Below, one piece after another: positions 7,575-49,320 of a DNA stretch of 64,000 nt (the stretch's first letter is position 1; each line of letters starts with the position of its first letter). The stretch is from a virus. The translations under genes and the position numbers were made by a program. Location of the stretch: the UHGV virus genome UHGV-0038492, one strand, 5' to 3'. The notes beneath the pieces are model-generated. The model made no database searches and had not been told where the DNA came from. It saw only the letters and a list, made by a program, of their open reading frames with translations.

Positions 7575-7581
7575 GAAAACC

Positions 7582-8109: not shown

Positions 8110-8989
8110 TGTCAAAGTTTACGACGGTAAACTCTCGACGGTAACACTTAATGCGATGCGTCTGGCTACCGCATTAATTACCGGTGCCGATGTGCAATAC
8201 CCACAGAAGTCCACACTGAATGAGTTTTATAAACTCATGCAAACCCCAGTGCCGGACGGTAAAGCACGTCCCCATTTGCAGTACATGGCGATTGGTAACC
8301 GTGGCCATATGGTCGACACATCAGACGTTGTTGCTGATGTTGTTCCTGTAGCTAAAGAACCTATCGCGTCCGGGATGTTTTCACGCGTTCCGTTTGTCCT
8401 GCGTACTAAAGACAACGATTTGTCTGATGAACAGCGTAAGAACTACGCTTTCCGTACTCTGGAAACCATCAACAAACGTGAGTATTGGGCGTACTACTTA
8501 AAACGCATTGACATGCGTGCAGTAAAAACTACCGACTACGACATTAAGCGTGAGAACGGTGTTGAAACTGTAGAAGACTTTGTCTATACGGATACTGAAC
8601 TGAACCCGGTACCGAAAGTGTTGCCGGACTACGATTACGATGATGACGGTACCGTTGCAATTCCTGACGGCCGTTATGTGGAATCAGGTGCAGACCTGGT
8701 TATTCCGTGGACGGACTTTGACGTTCAGGAGTACATGAACGTGACCAGCATTATGCGCGGTAGCCCTCGTAGTTCGATTATCTCTGAACTGGCACTGTGC
8801 TCTGGCTTAGACCAGGTAACGTCCGGTGACTCTGCTACAGGTTCGAAGTTCAGCTACACTGAAGCTATCGGTGTACAAGCCCTGTATTACATTTCGATGT
8901 TTACTAACCTGGCGCAGACGAACGATAAACTGTCACTGACAATCCGTATCGGTCAACCTGCACCGTTCTTCTTAGGGACAGCGAATTAA
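8102..8989 (+). CDS. hypothetical protein
   Basis: 295-aa ORF, GGAGAA RBS, start overlaps upstream stop. Confidence 0.7.
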   Translation: MSNVKVYDGKLSTVTLNAMRLATALITGADVQYPQKSTLNEFYKLMQTPVPDGKARPHLQYMAIGNRGHMVDTSDVVADVVPVAKEPIASGMFSRVPFVLRTKDNDLSDEQRKNYAFRTLETINKREYWAYYLKRIDMRAVKTTDYDIKRENGVETVEDFVYTDTELNPVPKVLPDYDYDDDGTVAIPDGRYVESGADLVIPWTDFDVQEYMNVTSIMRGSPRSSIISELALCSGLDQVTSGDSATGSKFSYTEAIGVQALYYISMFTNLAQTNDKLSLTIRIGQPAPFFLGTAN

Positions 8990-27796: not shown

Positions 27797-27843
27797 CTCC
27801 TACCGCCCGATTCTATGGGCGGTAGGTGTTTTATTTTTTTTTC
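27797..27843 (+). terminator. intrinsic terminator
   Basis: CTACCGCCC...GGGCGGTAG hairpin then T10. Confidence 0.75.
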
Positions 27844-27859
27844 GATCTTGGAGGGTTAA

Positions 27860-28423
27860 GTGGCCACATCTTACGTACCTGATTTGAGTCTGACCTCAGC
27901 AGAGCTAGTGGTCGCTTTAATCAATCATGATAACGGGTTACAGCTTACACTAAACGAAATCCGTATTAGCGGAACTGTAACAAACCCATCCCCAACAACT
28001 TCGCGACGTAACACTATCACCGAAATCAGTAAAATCAGAAAACCAGATGGTGCGTCTGTTGTGGTTTACTACGACAGACTTGACGCCGATGAGGTATTAA
28101 CGTCCGAACCTATTTTGATTTCGTTAGACGGTACCGAAGCGAACATTCGTGATGTGCTTAGTGTTGTAAATGAATACTGCGGTACGAATTTACAACCTGA
28201 GGACTTACGTGCCTCAGATATTACTTCAGGTAATGATCCTATTGCTATTAACGTTGCTGACGATTCTCCTGCCTGGATGAATGCGTTTATGGTGACGTTG
28301 TTTGATAAAACCGAACGTGCGTTAGCGAACGAAGAAGATGAAATCTTCTGCATCGGTGACGATAGCGTTCTTACATTCGAGGTTACAGATGGCGACAGCA
28401 CTGAAGAAGACGAGACTCCATGA
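27860..28423 (+). CDS. fibre-associated small protein, family member 1
   Basis: GTG start after GGAGGG; homologous to ORF 38024 (PDLSLTS..., ...NLQPEDL); directly precedes a fibre gene. Confidence 0.65.
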   Translation: MATSYVPDLSLTSAELVVALINHDNGLQLTLNEIRISGTVTNPSPTTSRRNTITEISKIRKPDGASVVVYYDRLDADEVLTSEPILISLDGTEANIRDVLSVVNEYCGTNLQPEDLRASDITSGNDPIAINVADDSPAWMNAFMVTLFDKTERALANEEDEIFCIGDDSVLTFEVTDGDSTEEDETP

Positions 28424-28850
28424 GCTCGAAAGCTACGCAGGCACACCCCAAGGCGGGGTACTGCTGTATAGCAAAGACAATAAAGAATATAAAATTGATG
28501 TTGATAAGTTAGCCCCGGTTGCGACAGTCACCACGGTTAACGGTTCGAATAATGCCGCCACGTTGGATTTCAATACCAGCACTGACATTATTCTGGTGTT
28601 AAACGATCCTAACACTACAGTGACGTTCGCAGCCCTTACCAACGTTGCAGAAAATACCCGTTTCGAAGTAATGCTAACGATTAAGCAAGGAACAGGGGCG
28701 AATAAAGTAACCTGGCCTGAAAACGTTAAATGGCCTCACGGTGCACAACCGGTTTTATCCTACGCGGCAAATGCGGAAGACACTCTGTCGCTTTATACCC
28801 TTGATGGGGGTGCCACCTGGAAAGGTTCTCTTCTTGCAGCGGGTTACTAA
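28389..28850 (+). CDS. short tail-fibre-like protein with conserved N-terminal anchor motif
   Basis: Internal ATG at 28389 with GAGG RBS gives MATALKKTRLHELESYAGTPQGGVLLYSKD, homologous to the N-termini of ORFs 31938 and 38539. Confidence 0.6.
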   Translation: MATALKKTRLHELESYAGTPQGGVLLYSKDNKEYKIDVDKLAPVATVTTVNGSNNAATLDFNTSTDIILVLNDPNTTVTFAALTNVAENTRFEVMLTIKQGTGANKVTWPENVKWPHGAQPVLSYAANAEDTLSLYTLDGGATWKGSLLAAGY

Positions 28851-31800
28851 ATGAGAAAACATTTTCAGCGTCACGCGATTAGCTACGCGTTATCGTTAGC
28901 TTACGGACACCAATCCTTCGTTACCCGGAATACGGGAACGACTCACGACGCGCACAACGAACACTATATTCAAAACGAAGAAGGTGTTCTGTCGAATAAC
29001 CGTCATTTCATTGCTGACACTATGGCGGAATACCAACCGAACGGGGATGCGACGACCGAGGGTCAGTCGTTACACGTTATTGGTTACTGCCACATGTATA
29101 TCGCGACGAAAGACGAAAGATGGTTAGATGCGGCGAAACGTGCCTGGGATGCGTACAACACGTACTTCTACGTCGGACAACCTATTCCGACCACACCCCA
29201 GCGTCGTATTTGTAACTGGTTGGTAAACGGGAAAGAACCGGTATTAGCACATTATCCAATACATCCTACAGAACCTACCCAAGGTGGGTATAAAAGCGTT
29301 CCTGTAAGGTTTACAAACGGACAGTGTAAAATACCGCATGGTGCACCGTTCTGGGGAGAGTATTTGGATACCTTTACGTTTGCGCATCGTGGTCACCCTG
29401 CCTGGGAAGCCATTAACGCAGACGTACAGATTATCAAGGAAGACAAAGAAGGGTCAATTAATTGGGAAGATGTTTTAACTCACGTTATTACCAATCCTGA
29501 TAAACCCTACGAGGCCAAAGCGTGGGTTGATTGGCCTACGTTATTAAACAACGCTACAGGGTACACCCCGCTTTGGGGTGGGAGCGCAACAAAAGCCCCT
29601 AAACACGACGTTGACTGGATAATTGCCTGGACAGGTAACAAAATCCAGGACAGTGAGATTATTGAAACAGGATTAGCAGATGCTGATAAAGGTACCGTAC
29701 AGTTAAAAGACACGCAGTTAAACGGTGTCTATTTGATTAACTACGCGGTAAAACTGCCTGTCGAACACGGTGGTTACGAGTTTAAACGTAACGAACCGTG
29801 GCACAACCGTCCAGTTCACACGCCGTTCTTAGGATCGAAAAACCAATACGGTAACGCCGCTGATGCTGAACTGTGGTTTATTGACGCCTGTTATTTGCTG
29901 TGGCGAATCACGGGTGAAGAGAAATACAAACAAGCATTAGACTGTACTTTCTACACAGCACACGAGTACACGTATATTGATGCGGTAGATAAATTCTTCC
30001 GTCGTTCTACCGCTGCGGAAACACCGTTTACGGACGGCATTTCGTACGACTTCAATTACCCGGACACCGTAAGTGCTACATACGGCCGTGATGAGAATGG
30101 GGATATTACCATCCATGTGCCTGAAGCGGCACAACACTTTATGGAGCAGAAAGCGGTTCGATTCAGGATTAACAAAGACTCCAAACTACGTGTCACGTAC
30201 GGCGGGGTTTGTAAGAACGGCGATCCTGTCTACTGTAAAGCAATGGTAAACATTAACCCTGTGAAAGCTGATACCGAGGAAGTAAACTGGTACGGTTTAA
30301 CTTTACCTCGGTCTACGGTAAATACCGTTAAGCAGTACGATGTTGACTTAGGCCAACTTGCCCGTATTAGCACCCCAGAAGGGGAAGATTACCTGATAGC
30401 TGATGACCGTGCGTGTTCGGACTATGGTGGTTGTACGTGGGAAGAACGTTTTGAGGACAGCATTTACGACGGTCGCGCGGGTACCGTTATAGAAGCTGAA
30501 TTTCCTGATGACGGTGCCGGGTTTATTATCGGGTTCTGGTTAACCGCTGAAGAGAAGGTAAAACCGGTTTCTATTGTCTACCGTGCGGACGCAGATTTTA
30601 ACCTGCGTTTAGCTGACAGCGATAAGTGGCGTTGGTGGTGGATGTTACCCAACACAAACAACGAATGGCGTCAGGTAACGTTAAATCCGGATGATGCCAC
30701 ACTTTCCAGTTATCAGCCGGACCACACAGACGACGACCCTAAACCGGCAGCGCCGAATTTCGATAAGGTGGATCAGGTCACGATTCTCCCTGACTCTACG
30801 GTTGACCATGCGCACTTTGCTTACTATTGTGTTAACGATGTTCCACCGCTCTTTAATAAAGACGACGGTTATATTCTCACCTTCCGTATTGGGTTACGCG
30901 GCGGTGGAGAGTTTGATGCGAAGGTCGGCGACTGTACGATCAAAGATTACCGTTTGGATTCGTTAGCGTATTGTCCGGGTACGATACCGTTCTCGAACAA
31001 CTATTCAGAAGGTTCAGAACAGTTAGGTGCTTGGCACGGGATGCCTTATCCGGGTTATCAGTATCCGTTTATGTACACTATCCACAAAGACGACCGGTAT
31101 AAGCTGTGGTTAGATAACCAGATTCAATTCATGTACGATTCGCAGTTGGCTTACCAACGGCAGCTCGGTGAATTAGGGCCTGGTTGTGCAGCTTATATTT
31201 GGAACCGTTGGGACAACTACACCTACGGAGAAGCGGATACCTGGACAACGTTCCATTGGAGCGACGACCATCCGTGGCCAGGGTATCAACCTCGTGCGTT
31301 TCATGCTGCGTGTCGTTGCTGGTACGAACTGAAACTAAGAGGTAAAGAGGTTCCTGAAGCGTTAACAAGCTATATTGAAAACTGGGTGAATTGGCTAGGT
31401 GGGTTTGTGGATCGGTTTAACGGACACACCCCTAACGAGTTTCCTACAGCACCGAATAAACCCGTTTGGGTGGAAGATGACTTCAACGCACATATGTGTG
31501 CGTTGTGGTTAGCAGGCTGTTGTTGGGCATTACTCGCTGGTGCAACGAATCCGAACTACGATAAGGTAGTTAATGCGGCAATTAAGGAGTTAGGTGAAGG
31601 GTTTACGATTACCTCAATTCCGAATAAGCCGATTAACGGGGCGTGGTCTCCAGCCGCTCGAGAGTCTTCCGATAACGGTATGGCTTTTGGGTTCTACAGT
31701 GGGGAAGCGTTCCGTGCGTTAGGTCTCTACGTTACTTACAAAACTTACGGAGCCAACGCTAATATTTATCGTGACTTAGCGATTACTGACCACAGTCAAG

Positions 31801-31856
31801 CGGTTTTAGACGTTACGTTAACGATAGAAGACGATGCATTAAAACCAGAGCAATAA
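28851..31856 (+). CDS. large tail-associated protein, possible glycan hydrolase/depolymerase
   Basis: 1001-aa ORF between two fibre genes; Trp/Tyr/Asp-rich composition typical of carbohydrate-active enzymes; no motif-level proof. Confidence 0.7.
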   Translation: MRKHFQRHAISYALSLAYGHQSFVTRNTGTTHDAHNEHYIQNEEGVLSNNRHFIADTMAEYQPNGDATTEGQSLHVIGYCHMYIATKDERWLDAAKRAWDAYNTYFYVGQPIPTTPQRRICNWLVNGKEPVLAHYPIHPTEPTQGGYKSVPVRFTNGQCKIPHGAPFWGEYLDTFTFAHRGHPAWEAINADVQIIKEDKEGSINWEDVLTHVITNPDKPYEAKAWVDWPTLLNNATGYTPLWGGSATKAPKHDVDWIIAWTGNKIQDSEIIETGLADADKGTVQLKDTQLNGVYLINYAVKLPVEHGGYEFKRNEPWHNRPVHTPFLGSKNQYGNAADAELWFIDACYLLWRITGEEKYKQALDCTFYTAHEYTYIDAVDKFFRRSTAAETPFTDGISYDFNYPDTVSATYGRDENGDITIHVPEAAQHFMEQKAVRFRINKDSKLRVTYGGVCKNGDPVYCKAMVNINPVKADTEEVNWYGLTLPRSTVNTVKQYDVDLGQLARISTPEGEDYLIADDRACSDYGGCTWEERFEDSIYDGRAGTVIEAEFPDDGAGFIIGFWLTAEEKVKPVSIVYRADADFNLRLADSDKWRWWWMLPNTNNEWRQVTLNPDDATLSSYQPDHTDDDPKPAAPNFDKVDQVTILPDSTVDHAHFAYYCVNDVPPLFNKDDGYILTFRIGLRGGGEFDAKVGDCTIKDYRLDSLAYCPGTIPFSNNYSEGSEQLGAWHGMPYPGYQYPFMYTIHKDDRYKLWLDNQIQFMYDSQLAYQRQLGELGPGCAAYIWNRWDNYTYGEADTWTTFHWSDDHPWPGYQPRAFHAACRCWYELKLRGKEVPEALTSYIENWVNWLGGFVDRFNGHTPNEFPTAPNKPVWVEDDFNAHMCALWLAGCCWALLAGATNPNYDKVVNAAIKELGEGFTITSIPNKPINGAWSPAARESSDNGMAFGFYSGEAFRALGLYVTYKTYGANANIYRDLAITDHSQAVLDVTLTIEDDALKPEQ

Positions 31857-31880
31857 TAACCCGCTTATAAAAAAAATATT

Positions 31881-31905
31881 GGGGGGGGGGTAAGCTACTC
31901 CCCCC
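31881..31905 (+). other. G10...C6 homopolymer hairpin upstream of the long fibre gene
   Basis: GGGGGGGGGG TAAGCTACT CCCCCC about 35 nt before ATG 31938. Confidence 0.6.
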
Positions 31906-31937
31906 GATCTTTAGCTCCCGATAGAGAACTTAATATC

Positions 31938-34900
31938 ATGGCAAAAGCGGTAAAGAAAATACGATTACATAATCTTAGACCATATACCGGTGATATCGGT
32001 GAAGGCGTTTTACTTTTCTCCAAGGATGAGAAAGATTATAAGTTACCAGTCCGTGAGATCATTGCGGATATTGACACCGTACGTAATGCGGTGGCTGAAG
32101 CACAGACAGCAGCAACACAATCACAAGAAGCTGCAACTCAGGCTACACAAGCAAAGAATTTAGCAGAAACAGCAAAACAACAAACTGACACCGTTGCAGC
32201 TACGGTTGCTCAACAAGCGCAAACTGTAACCGAAAAAGCAACTGAAGTCGGTACAAAACACACTGAAGTGTTAGCCGCGAAAACTGCGGTAGACGAAGTA
32301 TCAGTGTCGGTGAATGAGAAGGCTCAAGCTGTCGCCGCAAGCGAACAATCGGTGACGGCTGCTGCGGCTGATGTAACTAAGAAAGCAGAAACGGTTGCGC
32401 AACAGGCCGGACAAGTTCAACAGACGGCTACCAGCGTCGCAAATACTGCGGCATCAGTTGAGGCCAGTAAAGGTGCAGTGGAGAAAATTGCTGCGCAGGT
32501 CACGAAAGATAAAGAAACGTCGGAGGGCGCGGCTACCCGCTCAGAAGCGGCCGCACAACGTGCTGAGAAAATCGCCGCCCAAGGCTTAGTTGACGCTAGT
32601 ACGATCGGTAAAGGCATCGTTAAACTTAACGATACCCTGACTAGTGAATCCGTGACGGAGGCTGCCACGCCGTCCACGGTTAAACAGCTGAACGACGAAT
32701 TACAGTTAAAAGCCAATAAACATTCGCCGAATTTTACGGGTAAACCGACATCCCCAAAACCGCCGAAGGACTCGAATGACACGAGCATCTCCACAACGTC
32801 CTGGGTGCGTGACGCGATTGCTGAATTGGTTGGTTCCTCACCCGAGACGTTAAATACCTTAGCGGAATTAGCAGAGGCGTTAGGTAATGACCCTAACTTC
32901 GCAACAACGATCACTGAGGAGCTTGCGCAGAAGCAACCTATCAGCCCATTACTCACCGCAATCGCTGCGGTTACAAGTGCAGCAAACAAACTCCTGTATT
33001 TCACGGGCTCTAATAAAGTCGAGTTAACCGATTTTACAGAAACTGCCAGATCCTTGTTAGCGAAAGGGTCAACTGCGGATATTATTAACTTCCTGGGTTT
33101 GAAACCCACCGTTGATAAAGCAAACGGCGCACTACAGAAAAACTCTAACGGTGCTGATATCCCAAATAAAGAAACTTTTGCTCGCAACATCGGCCTATCT
33201 CCTGATACCTATCTGCGTTTCCGTGGCAAAATGCCTGTAGATGCTGATATTAACACATTTGCTCCAGATGCTAATTACACAGGAACGTGGTCTAAGTCGA
33301 CATCAACCAATGCGTCGATGGCAAAACACTTCCCAGAAGACGGTGCAGTCGGTTATCTGGAAGTGTATAAAGCGGGCAACTACAGTGGCGCGCAACGTTT
33401 TACCTGTCGTAATGGTAACGTGTACAACCGTATGTTGTCAGCCGCGTGGAACGGAACTAATGGCCCGTGGTCGCCGTGGAGAATGGTAACTACCGGTGTA
33501 CGCCCGTTATCTACATCGATTGATCTGAACTCTTTAGGCGGTGCCGAACACATGGGTAACTGGCGTAACTCGTCCAGTTCGTTAGCGGTGTTTGACAGAC
33601 ATTATCCTGAAGAGGGCGGTGGCGCTCAAGGTGTTCTGGAAGTCATGGAAGGTGGTCTTTACGGACGGTTGCAGCGATACACTACGCGTCGTGGCACAAT
33701 GTATGTCCGTGGTTTGACTGCAACATGGGATTCATCAAACCCACAATGGGAAGATTGGATTCAGGTTGGTTATCAGACTGACGGTGCTTTCTTTAAAGCC
33801 AATTTTAACGATCTCGTTAAACCGGGTCGTTTCAGTGTCACTGGTCAGGCAACTAACGGCCCACTTACCGGTTCTTCTGGCGAAACCATATTAGGCGTTT
33901 GTGAAGTTACCTTACGCTTAGACGGTACAGGGGTCGAACAGAATTATACCACATACGGCACGGGTGCAGAAACTAAAGGTCGTAAATTCCAACGTATCCG
34001 TACGGGTAACATTTGGAGCGATTGGCGTGAGGTTTTCACATCCTATTCGCTTCCGTTGGCCTTAGGTATCGGTGGGGTTGCTGCCAAGGTCGATCCGTTA
34101 GACTGGCAAACCTTCGACTTCGTTCCTGGCCAGATGATAAGCACACCGTTGAATACCATGAAAAACATTCCTGCGGGAATGGATTGGGGTGTTATTGACG
34201 GTAACTTGGTCACTATTCTTGTAGGGGCGTCGGAGGACACCGGTACTGGTCGGAGTATGTTGGTCTGGCGTGGTACAGTGTCTACTGCTAACTATCGCTT
34301 CTTTGCAGTACGTATCGCCGGTGAGAAGGGTAGCCGTACGATTACGCCACGACAGATGCCTGTGTTAAATGCAGCACACACTTGGGCCGAGAAACAAACG
34401 TTCTCTAAAGGCTTAGCGGGTGAATTGACAGGTAATGCGTCAACGGCAACGAAACTGAAAACAGCCCGTTTAATCGGTGGTGTAAGTTTCGACGGCACTA
34501 GCGACATTCCACTCCCTGGTGTTAACCAGCAAGGTAATCAAAACACCACTGGGAACGCGGGAACCGCAACCAAATTACAAACGGCTCGAAACATCAACGG
34601 TGTGAAATTCGATGGCTCTAGAGACATCAATATCAACACCTTGGTAGGACGTGGACGTGTTACTGCACTGACGGGATCAAACAAAGGTACGCCTGGTATT
34701 CAGATGTACGAAGTTTACAATAACGGTTATCCGACCGCTTATGGTAACTTATTGCATTTGGGTGGTGCTACTGCGCTAGGCGAAGGCGAGTTGTTAATCG
34801 GATGGTCGGGGACGAGTGGTGCGCACGCGCCAGTTTATATTCGTAGCCGACGTGATACGGCTGACGCGCCGTGGTCAGATTGGGCACAAGTTTATACTGC

Positions 34901-36497
34901 CCGTGACAGCATTCCTGGCGTAAATGCCACAGGTAATCAAGATACTACCGGCAATGCCGCTACCGCGACGAAACTGAAAACCGCTCGCAGAATTGGAGGC
35001 GTTACCTTTGACGGTACTGGGGATATCAATTTACCGGGGGTTAACCAAGCCGGTAACCAGAATACGTCAGGTAATGCTGCGACAGCGACTAAACTTCAGA
35101 CTGCGCGAAATATAGGCGGTGTGGCTTTTGATGGTACTAAAGACATCAGTTTACCTGGTGTAAACCAGACGGGTAATCAGTCGACTACCGGAAACGCAGC
35201 CACGGCCACAAAGTTGCAGACAGCTCGTACCATTAACGGTATCCCATTTGACGGCACTAGAAATATATCGTTAGGGCCTGCCGATATAGGTTGCCCGGCA
35301 TCACCTAGTGGTTGGTTAGAAACTGGCGCTGATGGCGCTGCAATAACTACAGCACAGCTAGTGACGTTATTGAAAAATAACGGCGCGTTTACCACAAGAT
35401 CGTGGGTTGCTCGCTGCGCATGGGCTTATGCCGCTAGTGCAAGTATACCTCATAGCGAGACGGGTTGTGGTGTTATTCCATTAGCTGGGGCTGTTATAGA
35501 AGTGATTAGTAACGGCAACAGCACAAACAACTACACGATCCGTATAACGACCGCCACAACGACGAGCGTCTCCGGCGCACTCACTAATGCGGAGTTTATC
35601 TACGTATTTAACGGCGATACTTACTCACCAGGTTGGCGTCGCGTGTACAATACGAGAAACAAGCCAACTGCTGCGGATGTTGGGGCGTTGCCATTATCTG
35701 GCGGTCAGTTGAATGGCGCGTTGGGTATTGGAACCACTAATGCTTTAGGTGGGAACTCCATAGTTTTAGGGGATAATGACACCGGCCTTAAGCAGAACGG
35801 GGATGGCGTTCTAGATGTTTACGCCAATAATGCTCATGTTTTACGCTTTACGAGTGGGGCTGTTCAAAGCAATAAACCTCTCAACGTTACCGGAGATATA
35901 AGAACCAATACTTGGGTTTATGCAAATAGATATTCTATTAACAGCAACTCAGGTTCTTGGATTAGCATGAGAGACCATAACGTTATTTTTGGTCTTAATC
36001 CGGTAGGAACTAGTTCTGCTCAGGCATTGTTAAGACAAGACCATGCTGATAGGAAATTTTTTGTTGGTGGTTTAGGTAACTATCAATTCGGCTTTTACAT
36101 GATAAACAACTCACGTACTGATAATGGCACCGATGCTAATGCTTATTTGCAAAACGACGGTACTTGGGTTTGTGGTGGGAACGGTAACTTTAACGACGTT
36201 TATATACGATCTGACGCCCGGCTGAAAAGTAATTTCTCTCCAATAACTAATGCATTGGAGAAGGTAAAGGAATTGTCAGGTTTAATATACGACAAAAAGG
36301 AGAACTTTAAATCCACTAATGTTCATCGTGAGGCTGGTGTTGTAGCGCAGACCTTACAAAAAGTGTTACCTGAAGCAGTTTCTACTTATAAAGACGCTAA
36401 TGGTGAGGACGTTTTGACGGTCTCTAACTCTGCACAAATAGCTCTACTTATTGAAGCAATAAAGGAGTTGGCGGAGATAATTGAGACCAAGTTATAA
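31938..36497 (+). CDS. long tail fibre protein with C-terminal intramolecular chaperone (peptidase S74-like) domain
   Basis: 1519 aa; conserved N-terminal anchor; Ala/Gln/Thr-rich helical stretch; four knob-like repeats ending W-x-x-W; five copies of the TGNAATATKLQTAR...FDG fibre repeat; C-terminal SDARLKSN motif of endosialidase/T5-fibre-type self-cleaving chaperones. Confidence 0.9.
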   Translation: MAKAVKKIRLHNLRPYTGDIGEGVLLFSKDEKDYKLPVREIIADIDTVRNAVAEAQTAATQSQEAATQATQAKNLAETAKQQTDTVAATVAQQAQTVTEKATEVGTKHTEVLAAKTAVDEVSVSVNEKAQAVAASEQSVTAAAADVTKKAETVAQQAGQVQQTATSVANTAASVEASKGAVEKIAAQVTKDKETSEGAATRSEAAAQRAEKIAAQGLVDASTIGKGIVKLNDTLTSESVTEAATPSTVKQLNDELQLKANKHSPNFTGKPTSPKPPKDSNDTSISTTSWVRDAIAELVGSSPETLNTLAELAEALGNDPNFATTITEELAQKQPISPLLTAIAAVTSAANKLLYFTGSNKVELTDFTETARSLLAKGSTADIINFLGLKPTVDKANGALQKNSNGADIPNKETFARNIGLSPDTYLRFRGKMPVDADINTFAPDANYTGTWSKSTSTNASMAKHFPEDGAVGYLEVYKAGNYSGAQRFTCRNGNVYNRMLSAAWNGTNGPWSPWRMVTTGVRPLSTSIDLNSLGGAEHMGNWRNSSSSLAVFDRHYPEEGGGAQGVLEVMEGGLYGRLQRYTTRRGTMYVRGLTATWDSSNPQWEDWIQVGYQTDGAFFKANFNDLVKPGRFSVTGQATNGPLTGSSGETILGVCEVTLRLDGTGVEQNYTTYGTGAETKGRKFQRIRTGNIWSDWREVFTSYSLPLALGIGGVAAKVDPLDWQTFDFVPGQMISTPLNTMKNIPAGMDWGVIDGNLVTILVGASEDTGTGRSMLVWRGTVSTANYRFFAVRIAGEKGSRTITPRQMPVLNAAHTWAEKQTFSKGLAGELTGNASTATKLKTARLIGGVSFDGTSDIPLPGVNQQGNQNTTGNAGTATKLQTARNINGVKFDGSRDININTLVGRGRVTALTGSNKGTPGIQMYEVYNNGYPTAYGNLLHLGGATALGEGELLIGWSGTSGAHAPVYIRSRRDTADAPWSDWAQVYTARDSIPGVNATGNQDTTGNAATATKLKTARRIGGVTFDGTGDINLPGVNQAGNQNTSGNAATATKLQTARNIGGVAFDGTKDISLPGVNQTGNQSTTGNAATATKLQTARTINGIPFDGTRNISLGPADIGCPASPSGWLETGADGAAITTAQLVTLLKNNGAFTTRSWVARCAWAYAASASIPHSETGCGVIPLAGAVIEVISNGNSTNNYTIRITTATTTSVSGALTNAEFIYVFNGDTYSPGWRRVYNTRNKPTAADVGALPLSGGQLNGALGIGTTNALGGNSIVLGDNDTGLKQNGDGVLDVYANNAHVLRFTSGAVQSNKPLNVTGDIRTNTWVYANRYSINSNSGSWISMRDHNVIFGLNPVGTSSAQALLRQDHADRKFFVGGLGNYQFGFYMINNSRTDNGTDANAYLQNDGTWVCGGNGNFNDVYIRSDARLKSNFSPITNALEKVKELSGLIYDKKENFKSTNVHREAGVVAQTLQKVLPEAVSTYKDANGEDVLTVSNSAQIALLIEAIKELAEIIETKL
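34428..35272 (+). repeat. in-frame tandem tail-fibre repeats (about 38 aa each), five copies interrupted by one knob-like domain
   Basis: Protein-level repeats GNQNTTGNAGTATKLQTARNINGVKFDGSRDI and variants; nucleotide copies are diverged. Confidence 0.8.
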
Positions 36498-36501
36498 TTA
36501 T

Positions 36502-36524
36502 CAGTGAGGGGTTCCCCCTCACTG
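36502..36524 (+). terminator. hairpin after the long fibre gene (no T-run)
   Basis: CAGTGAGGGG-TT-CCCCTCACTG perfect palindrome directly after the stop codon. Confidence 0.4.
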
Positions 36525-36544
36525 ACTCACAAGTACGTTATAAG

Positions 36545-37336
36545 GTGGTTATTTTGTCTGTATCAGCGACTCCCGGATGGATTGGTTCTTCAGCAAAAGC
36601 TGAAGCTGGTAATGGTTGGATGTCTGGCGCGATGCACACACTCGGTGTGCCAGTTCCAGGCTGGATGTCGCAATTGGCGGGAAAATCAAAAGAGGCTCAG
36701 TATTCGATCGGGGCTAATCACAATTACAATAAAGATACGCTTATTAACTATTTACGTTCCATAGGCTCTACTGCTGTCGTTGTGACCATTACAGGGGATT
36801 TAGTGTCTTATAGTAGCGGGGTTCCTTGTTTAGAGTTCCCTAGCAATCTTCCAAATTCGTATATTACCCTCATCATCAATCCTGGGGTTACAGTATACGG
36901 CAGAGGAGGCAACGGCGGTTCTAACTCACCAGGCGGTGCAGGTGGAACCGCAATACAGAACGGAATAGGAAACAGACTGCGTATAACCAACCGTGGCGCT
37001 ATTGCCGGAGGCGGTGGCGGCGGTGGCGGCGGTAACAGGGGTAGACTAATATTTGGTGGTGGCGGTGGTCGCCCATTCGGTGCTGGTGGGTCTTCCTCTC
37101 ATATGAGTTCCGGTGCGGCTGCTGGTACTATTTCCGCTCCTGGTAGAGGATCTGTTGGTGAGGGGTCTCTTAGTGCATATACAGGCGGTTCGGGTGGTAA
37201 TGTCGGTGCTGGTGGAGGAAGATGTAATACTCATGGTAACGGTACAGAATATAACGGCGGAGCAGCTGGTGCAGCTGTTACTGGTAATGCGCCAAGATGG
37301 GACGCAGTAGGTGCAATATACGGTTCACGTGTTTAA
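36545..37336 (+). CDS. glycine-rich fibre-associated protein
   Basis: 263 aa; run of nine Gly encoded by (GGN)9 and overall Gly/Ala/Ser-rich C-terminal part; N-terminus homologous to next ORF; start may be GTG 36545 or TTG 36554. Confidence 0.65.
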   Translation: MVILSVSATPGWIGSSAKAEAGNGWMSGAMHTLGVPVPGWMSQLAGKSKEAQYSIGANHNYNKDTLINYLRSIGSTAVVVTITGDLVSYSSGVPCLEFPSNLPNSYITLIINPGVTVYGRGGNGGSNSPGGAGGTAIQNGIGNRLRITNRGAIAGGGGGGGGGNRGRLIFGGGGGRPFGAGGSSSHMSSGAAAGTISAPGRGSVGEGSLSAYTGGSGGNVGAGGGRCNTHGNGTEYNGGAAGAAVTGNAPRWDAVGAIYGSRV

Positions 37337-37352
37337 TTAAAAAGGAGGGTAG

Positions 37353-37865
37353 ATGGGGGTAGCGTCAGGATGGGTCGGATCTTCAGCTAAGAATGAAACT
37401 GGCCAACAATGGATGAGCGCTGCGGGTAGTAAATTAGGATTGGGTAGACCTTTTATGATGAGCCAAATGGTAGGCAAGTCCGTAGGTTGCAAAATAGCAA
37501 CAGCTTATTATAAAACGTCAAATACTGATAAAGTAGAGAACTGGGGTGCTGTCGGAGCCGATTGGCCGTTGGTAGATAAGAACAAAGGAACGCTTTCTGG
37601 TGCCTCGAACTGTGGCTTAGGACGTTTAGTGGGGATCGTACTTACGCAAGCTCACTACATTTCTGGTGTTCCACCCACTGCGGCTTTATACATCGCAGGA
37701 GGAAGGGCAAGTAATATTACAGTAACAGTTGGTGGTGTTTCGCAAGCATTTACTTACGATAGTGTTATTAACGGTTTTCACTATTATTGGCAAGGAACGC
37801 CTAGTTCGGCCTTTATAGCGGCAATGAAGAAGACGGGTGTTACACAAGATTTGAAAGTTAGCTAA
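37353..37865 (+). CDS. paralog of the Gly-rich protein N-terminal domain
   Basis: AAAGGAGGG RBS; MGVASGWVGSSAKNETGQQWMSAAG aligns with SVSATPGWIGSSAKAEAGNGWMSGA of the upstream ORF. Confidence 0.65.
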   Translation: MGVASGWVGSSAKNETGQQWMSAAGSKLGLGRPFMMSQMVGKSVGCKIATAYYKTSNTDKVENWGAVGADWPLVDKNKGTLSGASNCGLGRLVGIVLTQAHYISGVPPTAALYIAGGRASNITVTVGGVSQAFTYDSVINGFHYYWQGTPSSAFIAAMKKTGVTQDLKVS

Positions 37866-38023
37866 CTAATTGGGGTAAAACGATAACTAAAACTAGTAAA
37901 ATAAGAGTTCGTGAATTCGTAATTCAATAATTTTTTATAGAAAGATTGATTTATTAGAATCGGAGGGGTGCGATGTTTTTAGCCAACATTTTACGTCTCC
38001 CCAATCATAGGAGGTAACCATAC

Positions 38024-38536
38024 GTGGAACAATTCACGCCAGATTTGTCGTTAACTTCACTTAACATGGTTATTTCACTGGTTAACCATGACCTCCAGCT
38101 TGACTTGCAAGAGAACGAGGTTGAAGTCAGCGACGTAAAGACCAGTAACGAAATGGATCGTGACACCACTGCTGTTGTAAAGATAAAACGTCCCGGTAAC
38201 AGAACGTTACAAATCTATTACAACCGTTTAACCGCAGAACGTTGGTTAAACCAGCAACCTATTCTGGTGCAAGTAACTGGAGAGGGGTTTAACACACACG
38301 ATTTAATCGATGCGATTAACGCAGCCTGTGGTAGTAACCTGCAACCCGAAGATCTTCAGGACGATTCATTTACAGTAGGAAAAGACGCTGTAACGTTACA
38401 GGTATCACCTAACTCCCTAAGTTATAAAGGCCAATTCTCTGTTTTGGTTTTTGGTAACGGCGAAGAGGCCGCAGTAACAAAAGATGACAACCTAATCGTT
38501 ACCGCAGATAATCGCGTCTTAACCTTTGGAGGTTAA
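38024..38536 (+). CDS. fibre-associated small protein, family member 2
   Basis: GTG start after AGGAGG; homologous to ORF 27860; precedes a fibre gene. Confidence 0.65.
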   Translation: MEQFTPDLSLTSLNMVISLVNHDLQLDLQENEVEVSDVKTSNEMDRDTTAVVKIKRPGNRTLQIYYNRLTAERWLNQQPILVQVTGEGFNTHDLIDAINAACGSNLQPEDLQDDSFTVGKDAVTLQVSPNSLSYKGQFSVLVFGNGEEAAVTKDDNLIVTADNRVLTFGG

Positions 38537-38538
38537 CA

Positions 38539-39159
38539 GTGGCTGAACTGGTAGGAAAGGTACGCATTCACGAGCTACCGTCACTTTCAGAAGACATTAC
38601 TGGTGTGGTGGTGTTAGCGTCTAAGGAACAAACCGAATACCAACTCCCGATTGAGAATTTAGGGGGTGGTGAGGTTACAGTGAGTCCGTCAGCGAATAAC
38701 ATCCTTAAGTCTAACAGCGATGGACTGTTTGTTGATGGCGCACATCCTATTGTACCGAAAATGGATGCAAAAACCTTATCGGGAAATATGGTGGTAGAAA
38801 AAACGCTGACAGGTGGTGCGGTAATCTGCAAAACAACGGTTGACGTTAATAATAGGCTGGGGATTTCGCAATTATCTGGGGTGTCAATTTATAGCCAGTG
38901 CCTGCTGGAAAATAAATTGGTTTACCTGGCAGAAGACGGCAGTATTATTGATGCGTACTTCTACATTAGTAATACAAAGAACACGGCCAGTACAATAACC
39001 CACACCATTCGGGTTGTCTTAGCGAAAGTACCTTCTAAAGTTGTCGATATCACCGATTTATCTGAAACTGAGGTGCAGTATCAGGATGCTAATTTGCCTG
39101 TTAAGATCGTTATTAAGCATCTTACAGGGACAACACTTTCCCAGAACGGAATGAAATAA
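38539..39159 (+). CDS. short tail-fibre-like protein with conserved N-terminal anchor motif
   Basis: GTG start after GGAGG; N-terminus MAELVGKVRIHELPSLSEDITGVVVLASKEQTEYQL homologous to ORFs 28389 and 31938; terminator downstream. Confidence 0.65.
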   Translation: MAELVGKVRIHELPSLSEDITGVVVLASKEQTEYQLPIENLGGGEVTVSPSANNILKSNSDGLFVDGAHPIVPKMDAKTLSGNMVVEKTLTGGAVICKTTVDVNNRLGISQLSGVSIYSQCLLENKLVYLAEDGSIIDAYFYISNTKNTASTITHTIRVVLAKVPSKVVDITDLSETEVQYQDANLPVKIVIKHLTGTTLSQNGMK

Positions 39160-39163
39160 GTTA

Positions 39164-39210
39164 TAGGTAGTAGGGGCTAAGCCCCTACTACCTTTCTTTT
39201 TTTTTATTTT
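39164..39210 (+). terminator. intrinsic terminator
   Basis: GTAGTAGGGGC-TAA-GCCCCTACTAC then T-run; ends the fibre module. Confidence 0.75.
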
Positions 39211-39285: not shown

Positions 39286-40137
39286 ATGTATCACCCGTAT
39301 TATCTCCCGCACATTCTAGCAAATAGGGACCCTGATTACTACTACGAACAAACAAAAGGATCTTTTAATCGGCTCTACATTCGCGAATTTAATACCGATG
39401 AAATGACGGACGACCAGTATCTGGAGTATCTAAAAGACCTTTACGGTTTTTCAAAATCGAATAAAGGTGACTTTGGACGTTCCGCAGTCATTAGGGTTGG
39501 TGAATATCGACATTTGGCTAAGCCTGTTACGTATCCTATTGTTACACGCGCCTATACATCGGATAGGCAATATATTGCTGAACTAAAATTTCCTTTACGG
39601 ATAGACGGGCCCCAAATTAGCGCTATAGAAGTAGAGATTCAACCAATTGCTGAAGACTATATTGAAGACTACTTCAAGAAAGCTAAAGACGTACTCGAGG
39701 AGGGTTTAAGCTACTCTGAAGAAGGAACGATTTGTCTTCTCTCGTTACTCTCGAAGACTTATGTCACAGCAAATTTCCGTATCTCCGATTCCAGTAACTA
39801 CAATACACTTACCCCCTCTAAAACAAAACCTGTTTATTGGGACGATCGGTTAGTCGACAGACAACGCTGGCTTACTATCTTAGATAAAGTAAAATTCGAA
39901 CCCCCTAAACACACCGAAGACGATTTTATTTTATTGCACAACTTTGAACCAATTTATATTCCGACGCATTTTGATCAAGCCTTACGTCATCGGTTGAAGT
40001 ATGTGTTGGAATTACGGTACGGAAAGATAAACGGACTAACCTGTTCCGGTGAATTGGGTGAAGAAGAACGCGAGAAGATAAAAATCGTGTTTGATAAGTT
40101 GGTTGAAGATTACATTAAGAAGGAAGGACAAATATGA
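39286..40137 (+). CDS. hypothetical protein (first gene after promoter-like motif)
   Basis: AAAGGAGG RBS; 283 aa. Confidence 0.65.
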   Translation: MYHPYYLPHILANRDPDYYYEQTKGSFNRLYIREFNTDEMTDDQYLEYLKDLYGFSKSNKGDFGRSAVIRVGEYRHLAKPVTYPIVTRAYTSDRQYIAELKFPLRIDGPQISAIEVEIQPIAEDYIEDYFKKAKDVLEEGLSYSEEGTICLLSLLSKTYVTANFRISDSSNYNTLTPSKTKPVYWDDRLVDRQRWLTILDKVKFEPPKHTEDDFILLHNFEPIYIPTHFDQALRHRLKYVLELRYGKINGLTCSGELGEEEREKIKIVFDKLVEDYIKKEGQI

Positions 40138-40577
40138 AACCAAATACTACTAATGGCATTATGCTACTTTGTGATTCTGAAACGTTAGCAAACCGTATTC
40201 GTGGTTTGATGGAAGTACGTTGGAAGCAAAAGGTTCGCGTGGACTATGCTGCACCGTTTGTTCACGTTACTTGGTTACCAGAAGCTAACGATTTCAAAGA
40301 AAATATCACCACGAAAAGAATTAAAAATTGGTTAATGGCAATCATTAACAAACAGATTACCGTTATCAATTTCCAGTTGTTCGGTAGTAAAGAAGAACAT
40401 GAAACCTTAAAACGCTGTTTAAGGGGATTGGATCTTGCCTTTTCTGTTCGTGGAAACTGTTACACAGCGTTCTTCATCGGTTCTCTTGAGTTATTTCAGG
40501 GAACATTAAACATTCAACTAAAAGAAGATTACGGGATTGTAAATAAGATTGATTTCGAATTCCCAGCAATGATTTAA
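40134..40577 (+). CDS. hypothetical protein
   Basis: ATGA overlap; 147 aa. Confidence 0.6.
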   Translation: MKPNTTNGIMLLCDSETLANRIRGLMEVRWKQKVRVDYAAPFVHVTWLPEANDFKENITTKRIKNWLMAIINKQITVINFQLFGSKEEHETLKRCLRGLDLAFSVRGNCYTAFFIGSLELFQGTLNIQLKEDYGIVNKIDFEFPAMI

Positions 40578-40588
40578 GGAGTAGTAAC

Positions 40589-41431
40589 ATGTTTCAGTTC
40601 GAACTAACCGAAGAAGAAAAGGTTATCAACAAGTTTAAAATTTCCCCTATCCCTACTGAAGAACAAATTAAGGAAATCGCTGAGCTACAAAACACGTACA
40701 CGTTTTACTATAAAGTTAAATCAGAAGCGTTTAACATTTTCTGGGTAGAAGGCGAGGTCGATTTCCCTAACAAGCTCATTAGTGCGGTTATGGATATTTT
40801 AGTACGGCCTGTTGAGACGCCTAAAGATCCAGAAATTCCGGATCAAATGACTTGTAGGCTAAAAGACAAGCCAACTGCGAAAGACGTCGCTTACTTCACA
40901 GACGAGATTCTACTTACCCCAAAACAAGCAGGCAAAGTTGAACCAATAATAGACCTTTTTTTCAGTGACGAATTCACTTATGTGGCTGAAGACAACAAGC
41001 TAAAAGTGAGCTATGAGAGTGCTTGTTGTCACTCTCTTTTAAAAGATCTATTGGAAGACATAGAGGATGAAAGAATTCTGCTATTTACCGTTGAAAATAT
41101 TACCGAACTCGATGCTGATGTATTTATCCACGACGTGGATGATGAAATTGGACGTTTTGTAATGGCAATTTGTCAACAAAAATATCTTGAAGGTAACTTG
41201 CATCTCTTGGTCAAAAACGAACCACGGGTTCTTAAAGTTTTGAAGTCCCATGTACGGAAAATTAAGAGAAATAATGAATTATATAAACGTGTTTTCGAGA
41301 AATACGAAAAGGAAGTCAGACAACGTTTTTCACGCCATTGTTCCGGCTGGTTCGAAAATCACGGTGTGGAACTCGCCCAGCTGTTTGATCAGTTTTATAA
41401 TGAGATGAGGAAGATTCAAGATCTTAAATAA
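40589..41431 (+). CDS. hypothetical protein
   Basis: AAGGAG RBS; 280 aa. Confidence 0.65.
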   Translation: MFQFELTEEEKVINKFKISPIPTEEQIKEIAELQNTYTFYYKVKSEAFNIFWVEGEVDFPNKLISAVMDILVRPVETPKDPEIPDQMTCRLKDKPTAKDVAYFTDEILLTPKQAGKVEPIIDLFFSDEFTYVAEDNKLKVSYESACCHSLLKDLLEDIEDERILLFTVENITELDADVFIHDVDDEIGRFVMAICQQKYLEGNLHLLVKNEPRVLKVLKSHVRKIKRNNELYKRVFEKYEKEVRQRFSRHCSGWFENHGVELAQLFDQFYNEMRKIQDLK

Positions 41432-47325: not shown

Positions 47326-48174
47326 ATGTCTCTTACGTCAAAACAGAAACTGCTAAAACTCATCAACACTGAAAACAATATTATTCCACCGTTGACTTTC
47401 AGTGATGTTGAAATCGGGGAACCTACCGGTACTGGGGTTGATACCCAGGTGGTTCTGACCTCTAAACTTAAAGGCGATGAGTCTACTACTTTAACAGTGA
47501 CTTACCACCGTCGTAACTTACCTGACTACCTAACCGGTGAGTTGGTATTCGGTAACGACAGTGTGGTAACCGCATCAGATTTGCTTAATGCGATTAACGC
47601 AAAATACAACCTAAATATTTTACCCTCGGATATCGTTGACGCAAAAGTTGAAGGCGAAACCCATCAGCTTACCGCTAACGAGAAATCTTACGAGTGGTGC
47701 GGTGTAGTAACGCTTACGCTGCGCGATCCTATTGACCTGACTGAACTGTTACCGGTTACTCAATTAGAGAATCTGGTAGAGTATCCGTCCACGAAGAAAG
47801 GTAACGCGGCGGTTTATTCTCACCCGATTGATTTCACCGCAGAAAAAGATTACCTTGACCCGATTACTATCAACGACGCTGTAGACTTGGTAGAATTAGC
47901 TACTAAACTGGATAGCGTCGTTGACGAGAAATGGGTAAGCGTACCTAAGAACGCGGCTAACAACCTGTACGGAGCGAAGATTATTTACGATGGTCCAACC
48001 GCAGGTTACGAAGGCGCAAATACGAAGTTCACTCGTGTGTTGGTGCTAACACTCAGCCCGCTGTGTTCTAACCTGACCGGTAACCTGTTAATTCACTTTA
48101 ACGGGACCGATCGTCCGAAGTCGAAGATTGAATTAGCACAGACTAATCCGGTCTTACCGGGATTCTTAGATTAA
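47326..48174 (+). CDS. hypothetical protein, fibre-associated small-protein family (extended)
   Basis: 282 aa; contains SDLLNAINAKYNLNILPSDI matching the family motif. Confidence 0.65.
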   Translation: MSLTSKQKLLKLINTENNIIPPLTFSDVEIGEPTGTGVDTQVVLTSKLKGDESTTLTVTYHRRNLPDYLTGELVFGNDSVVTASDLLNAINAKYNLNILPSDIVDAKVEGETHQLTANEKSYEWCGVVTLTLRDPIDLTELLPVTQLENLVEYPSTKKGNAAVYSHPIDFTAEKDYLDPITINDAVDLVELATKLDSVVDEKWVSVPKNAANNLYGAKIIYDGPTAGYEGANTKFTRVLVLTLSPLCSNLTGNLLIHFNGTDRPKSKIELAQTNPVLPGFLD

Positions 48175-48187
48175 GAGGATTACAGTA

Positions 48188-48667
48188 ATGGCCAATCAAG
48201 AAACTATCTTCGACCTTATTAAAAAGGCTAACCCGGACGCTGAGTTCGACACCACCAAAGTCACACTGGGTGAACCGGTTGTGACCACCGGTACTTACAA
48301 TACCGAAATTACGGTTGCGTCGATTAAGAATCTCGGTTATGTTAATAAGCAAACGTTCCAGTATAACCGCATTGACGCAGGTTTGTATTTCCTGAACGTA
48401 TTACCGAAATTGTTGGTAGAATCTGCAACGACTACCGCTGACTTACTGCCCGTCATTAACGAGCAGTACAGCCTAACCCTTACAGAAGACGACGTGTGGG
48501 TAGAACAGGTTGGTGAGTTACCGTTAGACGGTAGCGCAATCGAACACGGTATTTTCTTCCGTCCTGAGTGTCTGACCTGGGTTGGTGGTTTTACAGTGCG
48601 TGTTGCGCGTAAACCGGCTGACGCCACACCGCCAAAGACGGCGTCTCGCGCTAAAAAGAAAAAATAA
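48188..48667 (+). CDS. hypothetical protein, same family
   Basis: 159 aa; ADLLPVINEQYSLTLTEDDV motif; Lys-rich C-terminus; terminator downstream. Confidence 0.6.
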   Translation: MANQETIFDLIKKANPDAEFDTTKVTLGEPVVTTGTYNTEITVASIKNLGYVNKQTFQYNRIDAGLYFLNVLPKLLVESATTTADLLPVINEQYSLTLTEDDVWVEQVGELPLDGSAIEHGIFFRPECLTWVGGFTVRVARKPADATPPKTASRAKKKK

Positions 48668-48729: not shown

Positions 48730-49320
48730 ATGGCCGAACGTTGGACTAAAGAAGGTATTATTGAATCCAAAACCGATTTGGAAGGTGGGTACGTCAACGA
48801 CCCTGACGACAAAGGTGGAGAAACCTGTCACGGGGTAACACTGACAACTGCACGCGAATACGGGTACAAAGGAAGAATGAAAGATCTGACCCGTGCGCAA
48901 GCGTTTGACATTTACGATCGTGGTTGGTGGAAGAAACTTAAACTCGATGAGATTTTCGCTATCTCGCCGATACTCGCCGACCGGATGTTTGATTTTGCTA
49001 TTAACTCTGGCCGTGTTAACTGTGTGAAGTCATTACAACGTATTCTCAACGTTTTAAATAACGAAGGGAAACTTTACGCAGATATTGACACCGACGGTGG
49101 TATGGGACCTAAAACACTAGGTGCTCTGAATGCTTATCTAAATTACCGTAAAGGCGAGGGATTAGGCATCTTAATCTTTGCGTTAATCTCACACCAGGTA
49201 ACCTACTACACGGAAATCTCCGAAAAGCGTAAGAAGAATGAAAAATTCGCTTACGGCTGGTACGGACGTGTGTACAGGGAAATGCCGGATTATGTAGTGA
49301 AGGCGGGGTTAGTAAAATGA
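48730..49320 (+). CDS. endolysin-like peptidoglycan hydrolase (GH108-type N-acetylmuramidase)
   Basis: N-terminal EGGYVNDPDDKGGETCHGVT matches the conserved GH108 signature (EGGYxNDPxDxGGxTxxG). Confidence 0.7.
   Translation: MAERWTKEGIIESKTDLEGGYVNDPDDKGGETCHGVTLTTAREYGYKGRMKDLTRAQAFDIYDRGWWKKLKLDEIFAISPILADRMFDFAINSGRVNCVKSLQRILNVLNNEGKLYADIDTDGGMGPKTLGALNAYLNYRKGEGLGILIFALISHQVTYYTEISEKRKKNEKFAYGWYGRVYREMPDYVVKAGLVK

Follow-up and report, generated by a model that had tools for sequence, protein, structure and literature searches.

Several phages carry multiple recognition proteins per virion, including the KP32-type phages, CBA120, phi92 and phages with T7-like gp17 proteins, and in these proteins a constant N-terminal attachment part is combined with variable distal parts. 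Nucleus-forming giant phages evade many host defenses and have attracted therapeutic interest for that reason, while their host recognition is poorly understood; the outer baseplate and fibers were not modeled in Goslar and were modeled only in part in phiKZ. Here we describe a motif in a 64-kb stretch of the virus genome UHGV-0038492 (the window, to which all unprefixed coordinates refer). Three of its open reading frames (ORFs), A (28389, 153 aa), B (31938, 1,519 aa) and C (38539, 206 aa), have about 41 N-terminal residues in common. We infer that this segment, the anchor, binds the virion, and we consider it likely to be a docking module that fixes exchangeable host-recognition modules to the tail, given that it is strictly N-terminal, sits on unrelated modules that are swapped among relatives, and heads protein A, whose ortholog in phage SPN3US was scored as a tail protein. 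The arrangement resembles the KP32-type class of docking-anchor receptor-binding proteins (RBPs), in which a short conserved N terminus is joined to unrelated depolymerase or fiber modules in a plug-and-play manner. It differs from that class in that no sequence relationship was detected, in that it occurs in a nucleus-forming giant myovirus with up to five carriers per genome, and in that the partner may be a protein of the DUF7941 family instead of another RBP.

A sequence-only reading of the window had proposed a common N-terminal motif on these three ORFs, and pairwise BLASTP of the first 41-50 residues agreed with it: identities were 50% between A and B (E 2e-11), 39% between C and B (E 5e-7) and 38% between A and C (E 3e-7). 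The three proteins gave no alignment with each other beyond the shared N termini, so that the same segment stands on three otherwise unrelated proteins of one phage. The true start of A is the ATG at 28389, which yields the 153-aa length matching homologs P0005-P0008 (the mechanical ORF opens at 28338), and the start codon of C is the GTG at 38539. Searching all six reading frames of the window with a hidden Markov model (HMM) built from the motif gave exactly three sites, with scores of 74-84 bits, and no fourth copy:

28389..28514, + strand: anchor copy A (HMM 82 bits; BLASTP against copy B, E 2e-11)
31938..32063, + strand: anchor copy B (HMM 84 bits)
38539..38664, + strand: anchor copy C (HMM 74.5 bits at 38542-38664; drawn from the GTG start at 38539)

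The amino-acid identity of the three copies is 36-52% versus 43-51% at the nucleotide level, and the longest exact nucleotide run that they have in common is 6-8 nucleotides. Because nucleotide identity is just 43-51% and exact runs do not exceed 8 nucleotides, the resemblance is old and maintained by selection on the protein. The same short exact runs ruled out a recent repeat, a recombination linker or an assembly artifact as the source of the three copies. The consensus of 15 distinct carriers reads MA..vkKkRlHEL....Gd..g.V.L.SKd.KEYklp...l. Its conservation drops sharply after about residue 41, with a mean column entropy of 1.29 bits over residues 1-40 versus 2.93 bits over residues 41-50. 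These patterns bear on the idea that the similarity is a functionless, passive remnant of duplication or of recombination between cassettes, an idea that draws on the duplication of the flanking DUF7941 genes as well, given that the locus could stem from tandem duplication followed by 3' replacement. However, the residue pattern is retained despite saturation of the synonymous positions, conservation stops abruptly near residue 41 across the 15 carriers, and the motif persists with seven or more unrelated partners and across genera in which the rest of A has diverged to 45-48% identity, and we regard such a remnant as very improbable.

An exhaustive search of 1.84 billion representative proteins with a 45-column anchor profile returned 22 matches, the top 17 of which (133 to 1,494 aa) bear the motif at residues 1-45 and nowhere else. 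Judged by these predicted proteins, the anchor is always found exclusively at the N terminus. One of the profile matches, the 124-aa P0030, has the anchor at its C-terminal end and resembles a scrambled concatenation of segments of SPN3US gp123; it is probably an assembly or gene-calling artifact rather than a genuine internal copy of the motif. At least seven unrelated types of C-terminal module lie behind the anchor:

A-like proteins, 153-156 aa: knob
B-like proteins, for example of 1,494 aa: long fibers ending in S74, Gp34_trimer or Collar domains
C-type proteins, 205-207 aa
706-aa protein: SASA carbohydrate acetylesterase domain with DUF6645
709- to 710-aa proteins: immunoglobulin-like (Ig-like) and propeller-like regions
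Proteins of 273, 188 and 133 aa: other C termini

The anchor itself is without a counterpart in the collections searched. No Pfam family covered residues 1-45, even at E up to 10, a scan limited by HMMER filters that drop most matches above about 0.1; no PHROG specific to the motif was found and the PDB held no sequence match, so that Pfam, PHROG and PDB gave no sequence homology to any described anchor family. PDB searches with A, with the DUF7941 protein encoded before it and with the 1,001-aa protein encoded after it also gave nothing meaningful. In the literature searched, we found no published description of the motif in SPN3US-like or other chimalliviruses, and tblastn of the anchor against Goslar records gave no match at E up to 1. 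Kinship with the N terminus of the PaulScherrer knob protein (bas60_0024, phi92-like), which has a loosely similar strand-turn-strand pattern, was rejected at the sequence level given that the HMM did not match it. What is new here is thus a motif without homology to described anchors, in nucleus-forming giant phages, with one to five carriers per genome and a link to DUF7941.

To place the window among known phages, we note that the 50,697 deposited phage genomes include no close relative. The structural genes of the window have about 73% nucleotide identity to those of SPN3US (Salmonella, Seoulvirus) and of the Erwinia phages phiEaH2, Asesino and Stratton. The close relatives comprise four contigs from IMG/VR, 151-225 kb long, together with several of about 226 kb from public assemblies; related contigs are present in E. 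coli, Shigella and Salmonella assemblies, among them GCA_046223585.1, and orthologs of protein C occur in assemblies carrying these labels. Given the SPN3US-type matches of the structural genes and the C orthologs in enterobacterial assemblies, we take the window to be a piece of an uncultured SPN3US-like giant phage (about 225 kb) of enterobacteria.

Relatives provided the natural variants that a docking module with exchangeable cargo would be expected to leave. In the window, A stands between genes for a short DUF7941 protein (DUF7941a) and a 1,001-aa tail protein, and C follows a second short DUF7941 gene (DUF7941b). The relatives differ as follows:

L007: gene set as in the window
L006: C cut to an in-frame stub (16671) that joins its anchor to its last residues
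L008, L018 and L021: a single deletion that begins near codon 20 of A and stops about 20 codons short of the end of the 1,001-aa gene, with B and the rest kept
L014-L016: a SASA protein in the exact position of C, behind DUF7941b
L017: the S74/gp38 version of B replaced by one with a Collar domain plus a Caudo_TAP chaperone, and a 710-aa anchored protein after C
L018: two anchored proteins (273 and 709 aa), with a DUF4376 protein after each
L022: five anchored genes, of 153, 1,385, 273, 205 and 710 aa
L020: a 188-aa anchored protein behind DUF7941a, without the knob and the 1,001-aa protein

The deletions leave A stubs of 34 codons in L008 (9762-9866) and L018 (2920-3024) and of 18 codons in L021 (2332), and the distal third of B is exchanged among close relatives. 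Distal modules are therefore exchanged behind a constant anchor, and the pattern of swaps and deletions is, as far as gene content can tell, that expected of an attachment module with exchangeable cargo. The N-terminal similarity is thus kept in relatives, where a lack of conservation had been named as grounds for abandoning the idea. The proposal of exchangeable cassettes on a shared anchor of unrelated tail proteins also gained strong comparative support, from the seven or more C-terminal modules, from swaps and deletions at the same positions, and from the assignment of SPN3US gp123 to the tail. All 25 of the 25 cultured relatives (Seoulvirus, Asesino and pEa_SNUABM_29) have one anchor copy, on the gp123 ortholog, and the copy number per genome ranges from one (SPN3US and Asesino) to five (L022). 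A single docking site on the baseplate, as also suggested earlier, is doubtful because a genome can encode up to five anchored proteins.

Copy number also bears on a different role for the segment, in which it would be a homo- or hetero-oligomerization element that bundles the N termini of paralogs into a mixed fiber base and would not plug into a separate protein. In phiKZ, the paralogs gp131, gp133, gp134 and gp135 have common N-terminal segments and were fitted as a hetero-hexameric fiber base (PMC13250141). They resemble the proteins studied here as chimallivirus tail-fiber paralogs with a common N terminus that differ distally (PMC13250141), but gp131 belongs to a different sequence family with SPN3US counterparts gp168-170, and its shared part is a folded domain with a helix in a six-helix bundle and not a 41-residue motif. 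Fibers and spikes are usually trimers, which would place three anchors next to each other regardless. Variation from one to five copies and the independent loss of cassettes would be incompatible with a fixed hetero-oligomer, SPN3US and Asesino possess a single carrier, and the element is a 40-residue hairpin-type segment with no helical prediction, unlike the phiKZ six-helix bundle. We therefore consider an oligomerization role improbable and favor docking to the tail.

The three carriers lie in a host-recognition island at 27799-39193, in which all genes are on the + strand and which is enclosed by two terminator-like hairpins:

27799..27826, + strand: terminator-like hairpin at the upstream border, with an 11-bp stem (8 G-C pairs) and then the T run TGTTTTATTT
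27860..28423, + strand: short DUF7941 protein a (187 aa; Pfam PF25613, 74.2 bits; phrog_2935, virion structural protein)
28389..28850, + strand: protein A (153 aa), anchor and beta-sandwich knob (phrog_9017, tail fiber protein, E 1.6e-38)
28851..31856, + strand: 1,001-aa tail protein (T1001), without an anchor of its own (phrog_2871, 1,455 bits)
31938..36497, + strand: protein B (1,519 aa), with Phage_fiber_2 (residues 225-261) and Peptidase_S74 (residues 1425-1481) domains and matches to 63 tail-fiber PHROGs
36545..37336, + strand: gp38-type tip adhesin (263 aa; Pfam GP38, 232.6 bits, and Gp38_N)
37353..37865, + strand: second tip adhesin (170 aa; Gp38_N, 73 bits; phrog_1121, tail fiber adhesin)
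38024..38536, + strand: short DUF7941 protein b (170 aa; PF25613, 60.3 bits), a paralog of a
38539..39159, + strand: protein C (206 aa), anchor and a 160-aa C-terminal module (residues 47-205 match phrog_33169)
39165..39193, + strand: strong terminator-like hairpin at the downstream border, with a 13-bp stem (8 G-C pairs) and then TTCTTTTTTT

The end of DUF7941a overlaps the start of gene A, DUF7941b adjoins the start of gene C, and the start codon of the T1001 gene directly abuts the stop codon of A. The gap between the T1001 gene and B (31857-31937) contains a hairpin with a G10/C6 sequence, which is kept in L008 across the deletion junction and which our simple terminator scan did not list; because of this hairpin, gene B may be a separate transcription unit. 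Directly downstream of the island, at 39286-41431, lie three conserved genes (283, 147 and 280 aa); the 283-aa product had no Pfam or PHROG match and the 280-aa product had no Pfam match. Relatives retain two or three of these genes although the island varies, and the 283-aa gene is absent in L006, L007 and L018. A few genes downstream of the island, 48730-49320 encodes an endolysin-type protein (Glyco_hydro_108 and PG_binding_3).

Protein A and T1001 have counterparts in cultured phages. A is 47% identical to P0022 (156 aa, nearly identical to SPN3US gp123), and T1001 is 71.7% identical to SPN3US gp124 over its full length (72-77% to SPN3US and Asesino). Sequence and gene order agree in making SPN3US_0122, SPN3US_0123 and SPN3US_0124 the orthologs of DUF7941a, A and T1001, and the gene order and overlapping ends are the same in SPN3US gp122-gp123-gp124 and Asesino gp139-141. 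These cultured phages have a single anchored protein, whereas the clade of the window has acquired fiber B and its gp38 adhesins, a second DUF7941 gene and protein C. Mass spectrometry of SPN3US gave 55 spectra of gp123 in wild-type particles and none in tailless particles, and 530 versus 20 spectra of gp124; both proteins were scored as "Tail" (PMC10052503 Table S2).

The AlphaFold2 model of A has a mean predicted local distance difference test (pLDDT) score of 83, with a confident beta-sandwich at residues 47-153 (>90). This beta-sandwich recurs at the C terminus of many small "tail fiber" proteins with other N termini. The best Foldseek match of the knob, at a weak E of 0.04, was TSP4-N of CBA120 (Ackermannviridae), whose TSP1-4 proteins form a branched tailspike complex and have T4 gp10-like XD assembly domains in TSP4-N and TSP2-N. 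This weak structural match is in line with an adaptor role for A but concerns the knob and not the anchor, and the CBA120 attachment parts are folded domains of about 100 aa arranged in a hierarchy, in contrast to the peptide-sized motif of about 41 aa described here.

Homologs of T1001 occur in 536 phage records from many families, where they are annotated as lateral tail fibers with glycosidase domains. We checked two unrelated phages for the upstream gene, and in both Justusliebigvirus PaulScherrer (E 1e-25) and Rosemountvirus zoltan (E 5e-19) a knob gene with a different N terminus lies directly upstream of the T1001 homolog. The knob and T1001 were co-present or co-absent in every locus examined. 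Given that the knob accompanies T1001 homologs, also in unrelated phages, A is probably an adaptor (anchor plus knob) for T1001 rather than a receptor binder, and we infer that it bridges T1001 to the virion. The earlier description of A, B and C as three receptor-binding proteins is thus upheld for the shared anchor and revised for A.

The behavior of knob proteins is informative on a further alternative, that the N terminus serves assembly or expression, as a tag for a common chaperone or a delivery signal that is removed or irrelevant in the mature virion. In T4, T7, P22 and CBA120, C-terminal parts guide fiber or spike folding and the N terminus is the attachment end, and it is thus the C-terminal parts that direct chaperone-dependent folding in known fibers and spikes. 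The downstream chaperone systems of the carriers differ (S74, gp38, Caudo_TAP and DUF4376), which makes a common upstream step conceivable, and disorder is predicted for residues 1-20. Knob proteins of other families, however, have lineage-specific N termini, as attachment to lineage-specific tails predicts, and no cleavage of gp123 was reported in the SPN3US maturation studies searched. A role in assembly seems to us less probable still than one in oligomerization, and attachment to the tail is the reading that we retain.

Protein B consists of the anchor, an Ala/Gln-rich rod, a T-even-like fiber shaft and a C-terminal S74 intramolecular chaperone. The Peptidase_S74 match scored 55.6 bits against a cutoff of 22, which identifies the chaperone domain, and we propose that B matures via S74 self-cleavage. 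The product of 36545-37336 matches both PF21721 (the Gp38_N attachment domain, 44 bits) and PF05268 (the glycine-rich, receptor-binding GP38 domain, 232.6 bits), as a T-even gp38 tip adhesin does, and that of 37353-37865 matches PF21721 alone and has a different C terminus. These consecutive adhesin genes, with a common Gp38_N and divergent C termini, appear to form a second "plug + head" layer at the tip of fiber B. Because the 36545-37336 gene has about 80% nucleotide identity to gp38 of the Krischvirus phages RB49, JSE and Phi1, it implies an exchange of gp38 between T-even and giant phages. Protein C matches the 842-aa family phrog_33169 through its residues 47-205, which correspond to the C-terminal end of that family, and about 20 orthologous clusters were found at 89-98% identity; its AlphaFold2 model (mean pLDDT 31.8) was unusable. 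B and C would both be virion proteins.

We considered which tail protein could receive the anchor. DUF7941 was described as a chimallivirus-specific family that forms head-to-tail filaments in Goslar, in which the linker of one subunit is modeled to dock on the N-terminal domain of its neighbor, and its members were proposed to lie on the peripheral baseplate, sometimes with carbohydrate-binding or hydrolase domains (bioRxiv 10.64898/2026.04.21.720040). In phiKZ, the gp139 band terminates, at the tip of every lobe of the baseplate, in a DUF7941 protein, gp127 (PMC13250141). DUF7941a and DUF7941b are paralogs (36% identity, E 4e-39), and both belong to the family, with PF25613 scores of 74.2 bits (27860-28423) and 60.3 bits (38024-38536) against a cutoff of 27. 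Each spans profile positions 3-154 of 276, comprising an N-terminal domain and a tail like Goslar gp23, and the locus copies do not have the full architecture of N-terminal domain, linker and C-terminal domain. A second DUF7941 pair lies outside the island: 47326-48174 is full length (282 aa, 176 bits), and 48188-48667 (159 aa, 98.9 bits) has the N-terminal domain only with a lysine-rich tail. This pair resembles the abundant gp22/gp23 of Goslar.

Every A-type, C-type and SASA-type gene, and one 709/710-type gene, has a short DUF7941 gene that runs up to or into its start, and the C-terminal tail of DUF7941b varies with the anchor encoded downstream (...DNRVLTFGG with MAELVGKVR; ...DDSVVLTFDNKILTFGE with MSQPIGKKR). 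In SPN3US, the DUF7941a ortholog gp122 gave 22 spectra in wild-type and 0 in tailless particles (PMC10052503 Table S2). As possible partners of the anchor we tentatively put forward the products of the two short DUF7941 genes that precede A and C, or DUF7941 subunits more broadly. In a more specific version, perhaps slightly the more doubtful of the two, the anchor would be a peptide plug joined to the DUF7941 N-terminal domain by strand addition, and up to five devices would hang in this manner.

Several points weigh against a DUF7941 partner. Carriers of the B type, the 273-aa type and most of the 710-aa type are without a DUF7941 gene of their own, and short DUF7941 genes do not pair one to one with anchored genes (2:3 in the window and 2:5 in L022). 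That the DUF7941b tail varies with the anchor may reflect no more than a recombination breakpoint. The SPN3US authors labeled gp122 as non-virion (PMC10052503 Table S2), and SPN3US paralog family B (20 members, gp138-154 and others, possibly including gp122) was assigned to the head on the basis of its presence in tailless particles (PMC5694885). Family B can be equated with DUF7941 only tentatively, solely through the gp122 link. The head (PMC5694885) and baseplate-filament (bioRxiv 10.64898/2026.04.21.720040) views of DUF7941 are in conflict. Separately, we rejected the idea that the anchor is homologous to the linker or the C-terminal domain of DUF7941, given that the Pfam scans at E up to 10, subject to the filter limit given above, gave no DUF7941 match, and no resemblance to the anchors could be seen in the full-length paralog (47326-48174).

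The Goslar "fiber cloud" proteins gp86, gp92 and gp161 offer a close comparison for such a partnership, given that in them DUF7941 is covalently fused to carbohydrate-binding, glycoside-hydrolase or leucine-rich repeat domains (bioRxiv 10.64898/2026.04.21.720040). Both arrangements would be a chimallivirus-specific display of host-recognition domains at the peripheral baseplate, and the window couples short DUF7941 genes to recognition modules; unlike in the Goslar fusions, these modules are separate proteins with an anchor of their own. One relative, L012 (IMGVR_UViG_3300029126_000001), encodes at 6217-8151 a 644-aa DUF7941b ortholog with about 475 residues fused N-terminal to the DUF7941 domain, an order opposite to that of the Goslar fusions. 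This 475-aa domain had no Pfam match and, judged by eye, looks like an alpha-helical glycoside hydrolase. If the devices were carried on DUF7941 adaptors or filaments at the baseplate periphery, an adaptor-borne enzyme, a T-even-type long fiber, an esterase and small lectin-like modules would be displayed together, as a non-covalent counterpart of the Goslar DUF7941-enzyme fusions and by a principle undescribed for any phage. Docking by strand addition, if true, would also help to settle the dispute over a head or baseplate location of DUF7941.

Taken together, the N-terminal ~41 residues that A, B and C have in common would be a lineage-specific anchor that holds distal modules at the tail periphery, each module being a self-contained cassette. 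The distal parts are of the kinds that bind receptors or modify surface polysaccharides, namely the gp38-tipped B, the SASA protein, the Ig-like and propeller-like proteins and T1001 linked through A. In this scheme, A (anchor plus knob) would carry the glycosidase-like T1001, B would be an S74-matured long fiber tipped with one of two gp38-type adhesins, and C would be a small anchored module. Because the anchor is constant, recombination could add, replace or delete cassettes without re-fitting of the tail, and several recognition devices would be displayed simultaneously on the virion. Two considerations weigh against attachment by this segment: the AlphaFold2 model of A places residues 1-20 at a pLDDT of about 50 and the hairpin at residues 24-37 at about 73, making the anchor moderately confident, and the comparison loci (the L006-L022 series) are metagenome or contaminant contigs for which viability is assumed.

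In summary, our analysis suggests that a 41-residue anchor marks the tail-displayed recognition modules among the genes of SPN3US-like phages. The boundary of the anchor predicts graft points at which foreign modules may be joined in order to retarget such phages, and the anchor itself is a short sequence to seek in unassigned density of the peripheral baseplate. Nature supplies genomes with between one and five cassettes, clean deletions included, and this variant set may link modules to hosts. The presence of a T-even gp38 adhesin gene at a giant-phage fiber would be an example of exchange between very different phage families.

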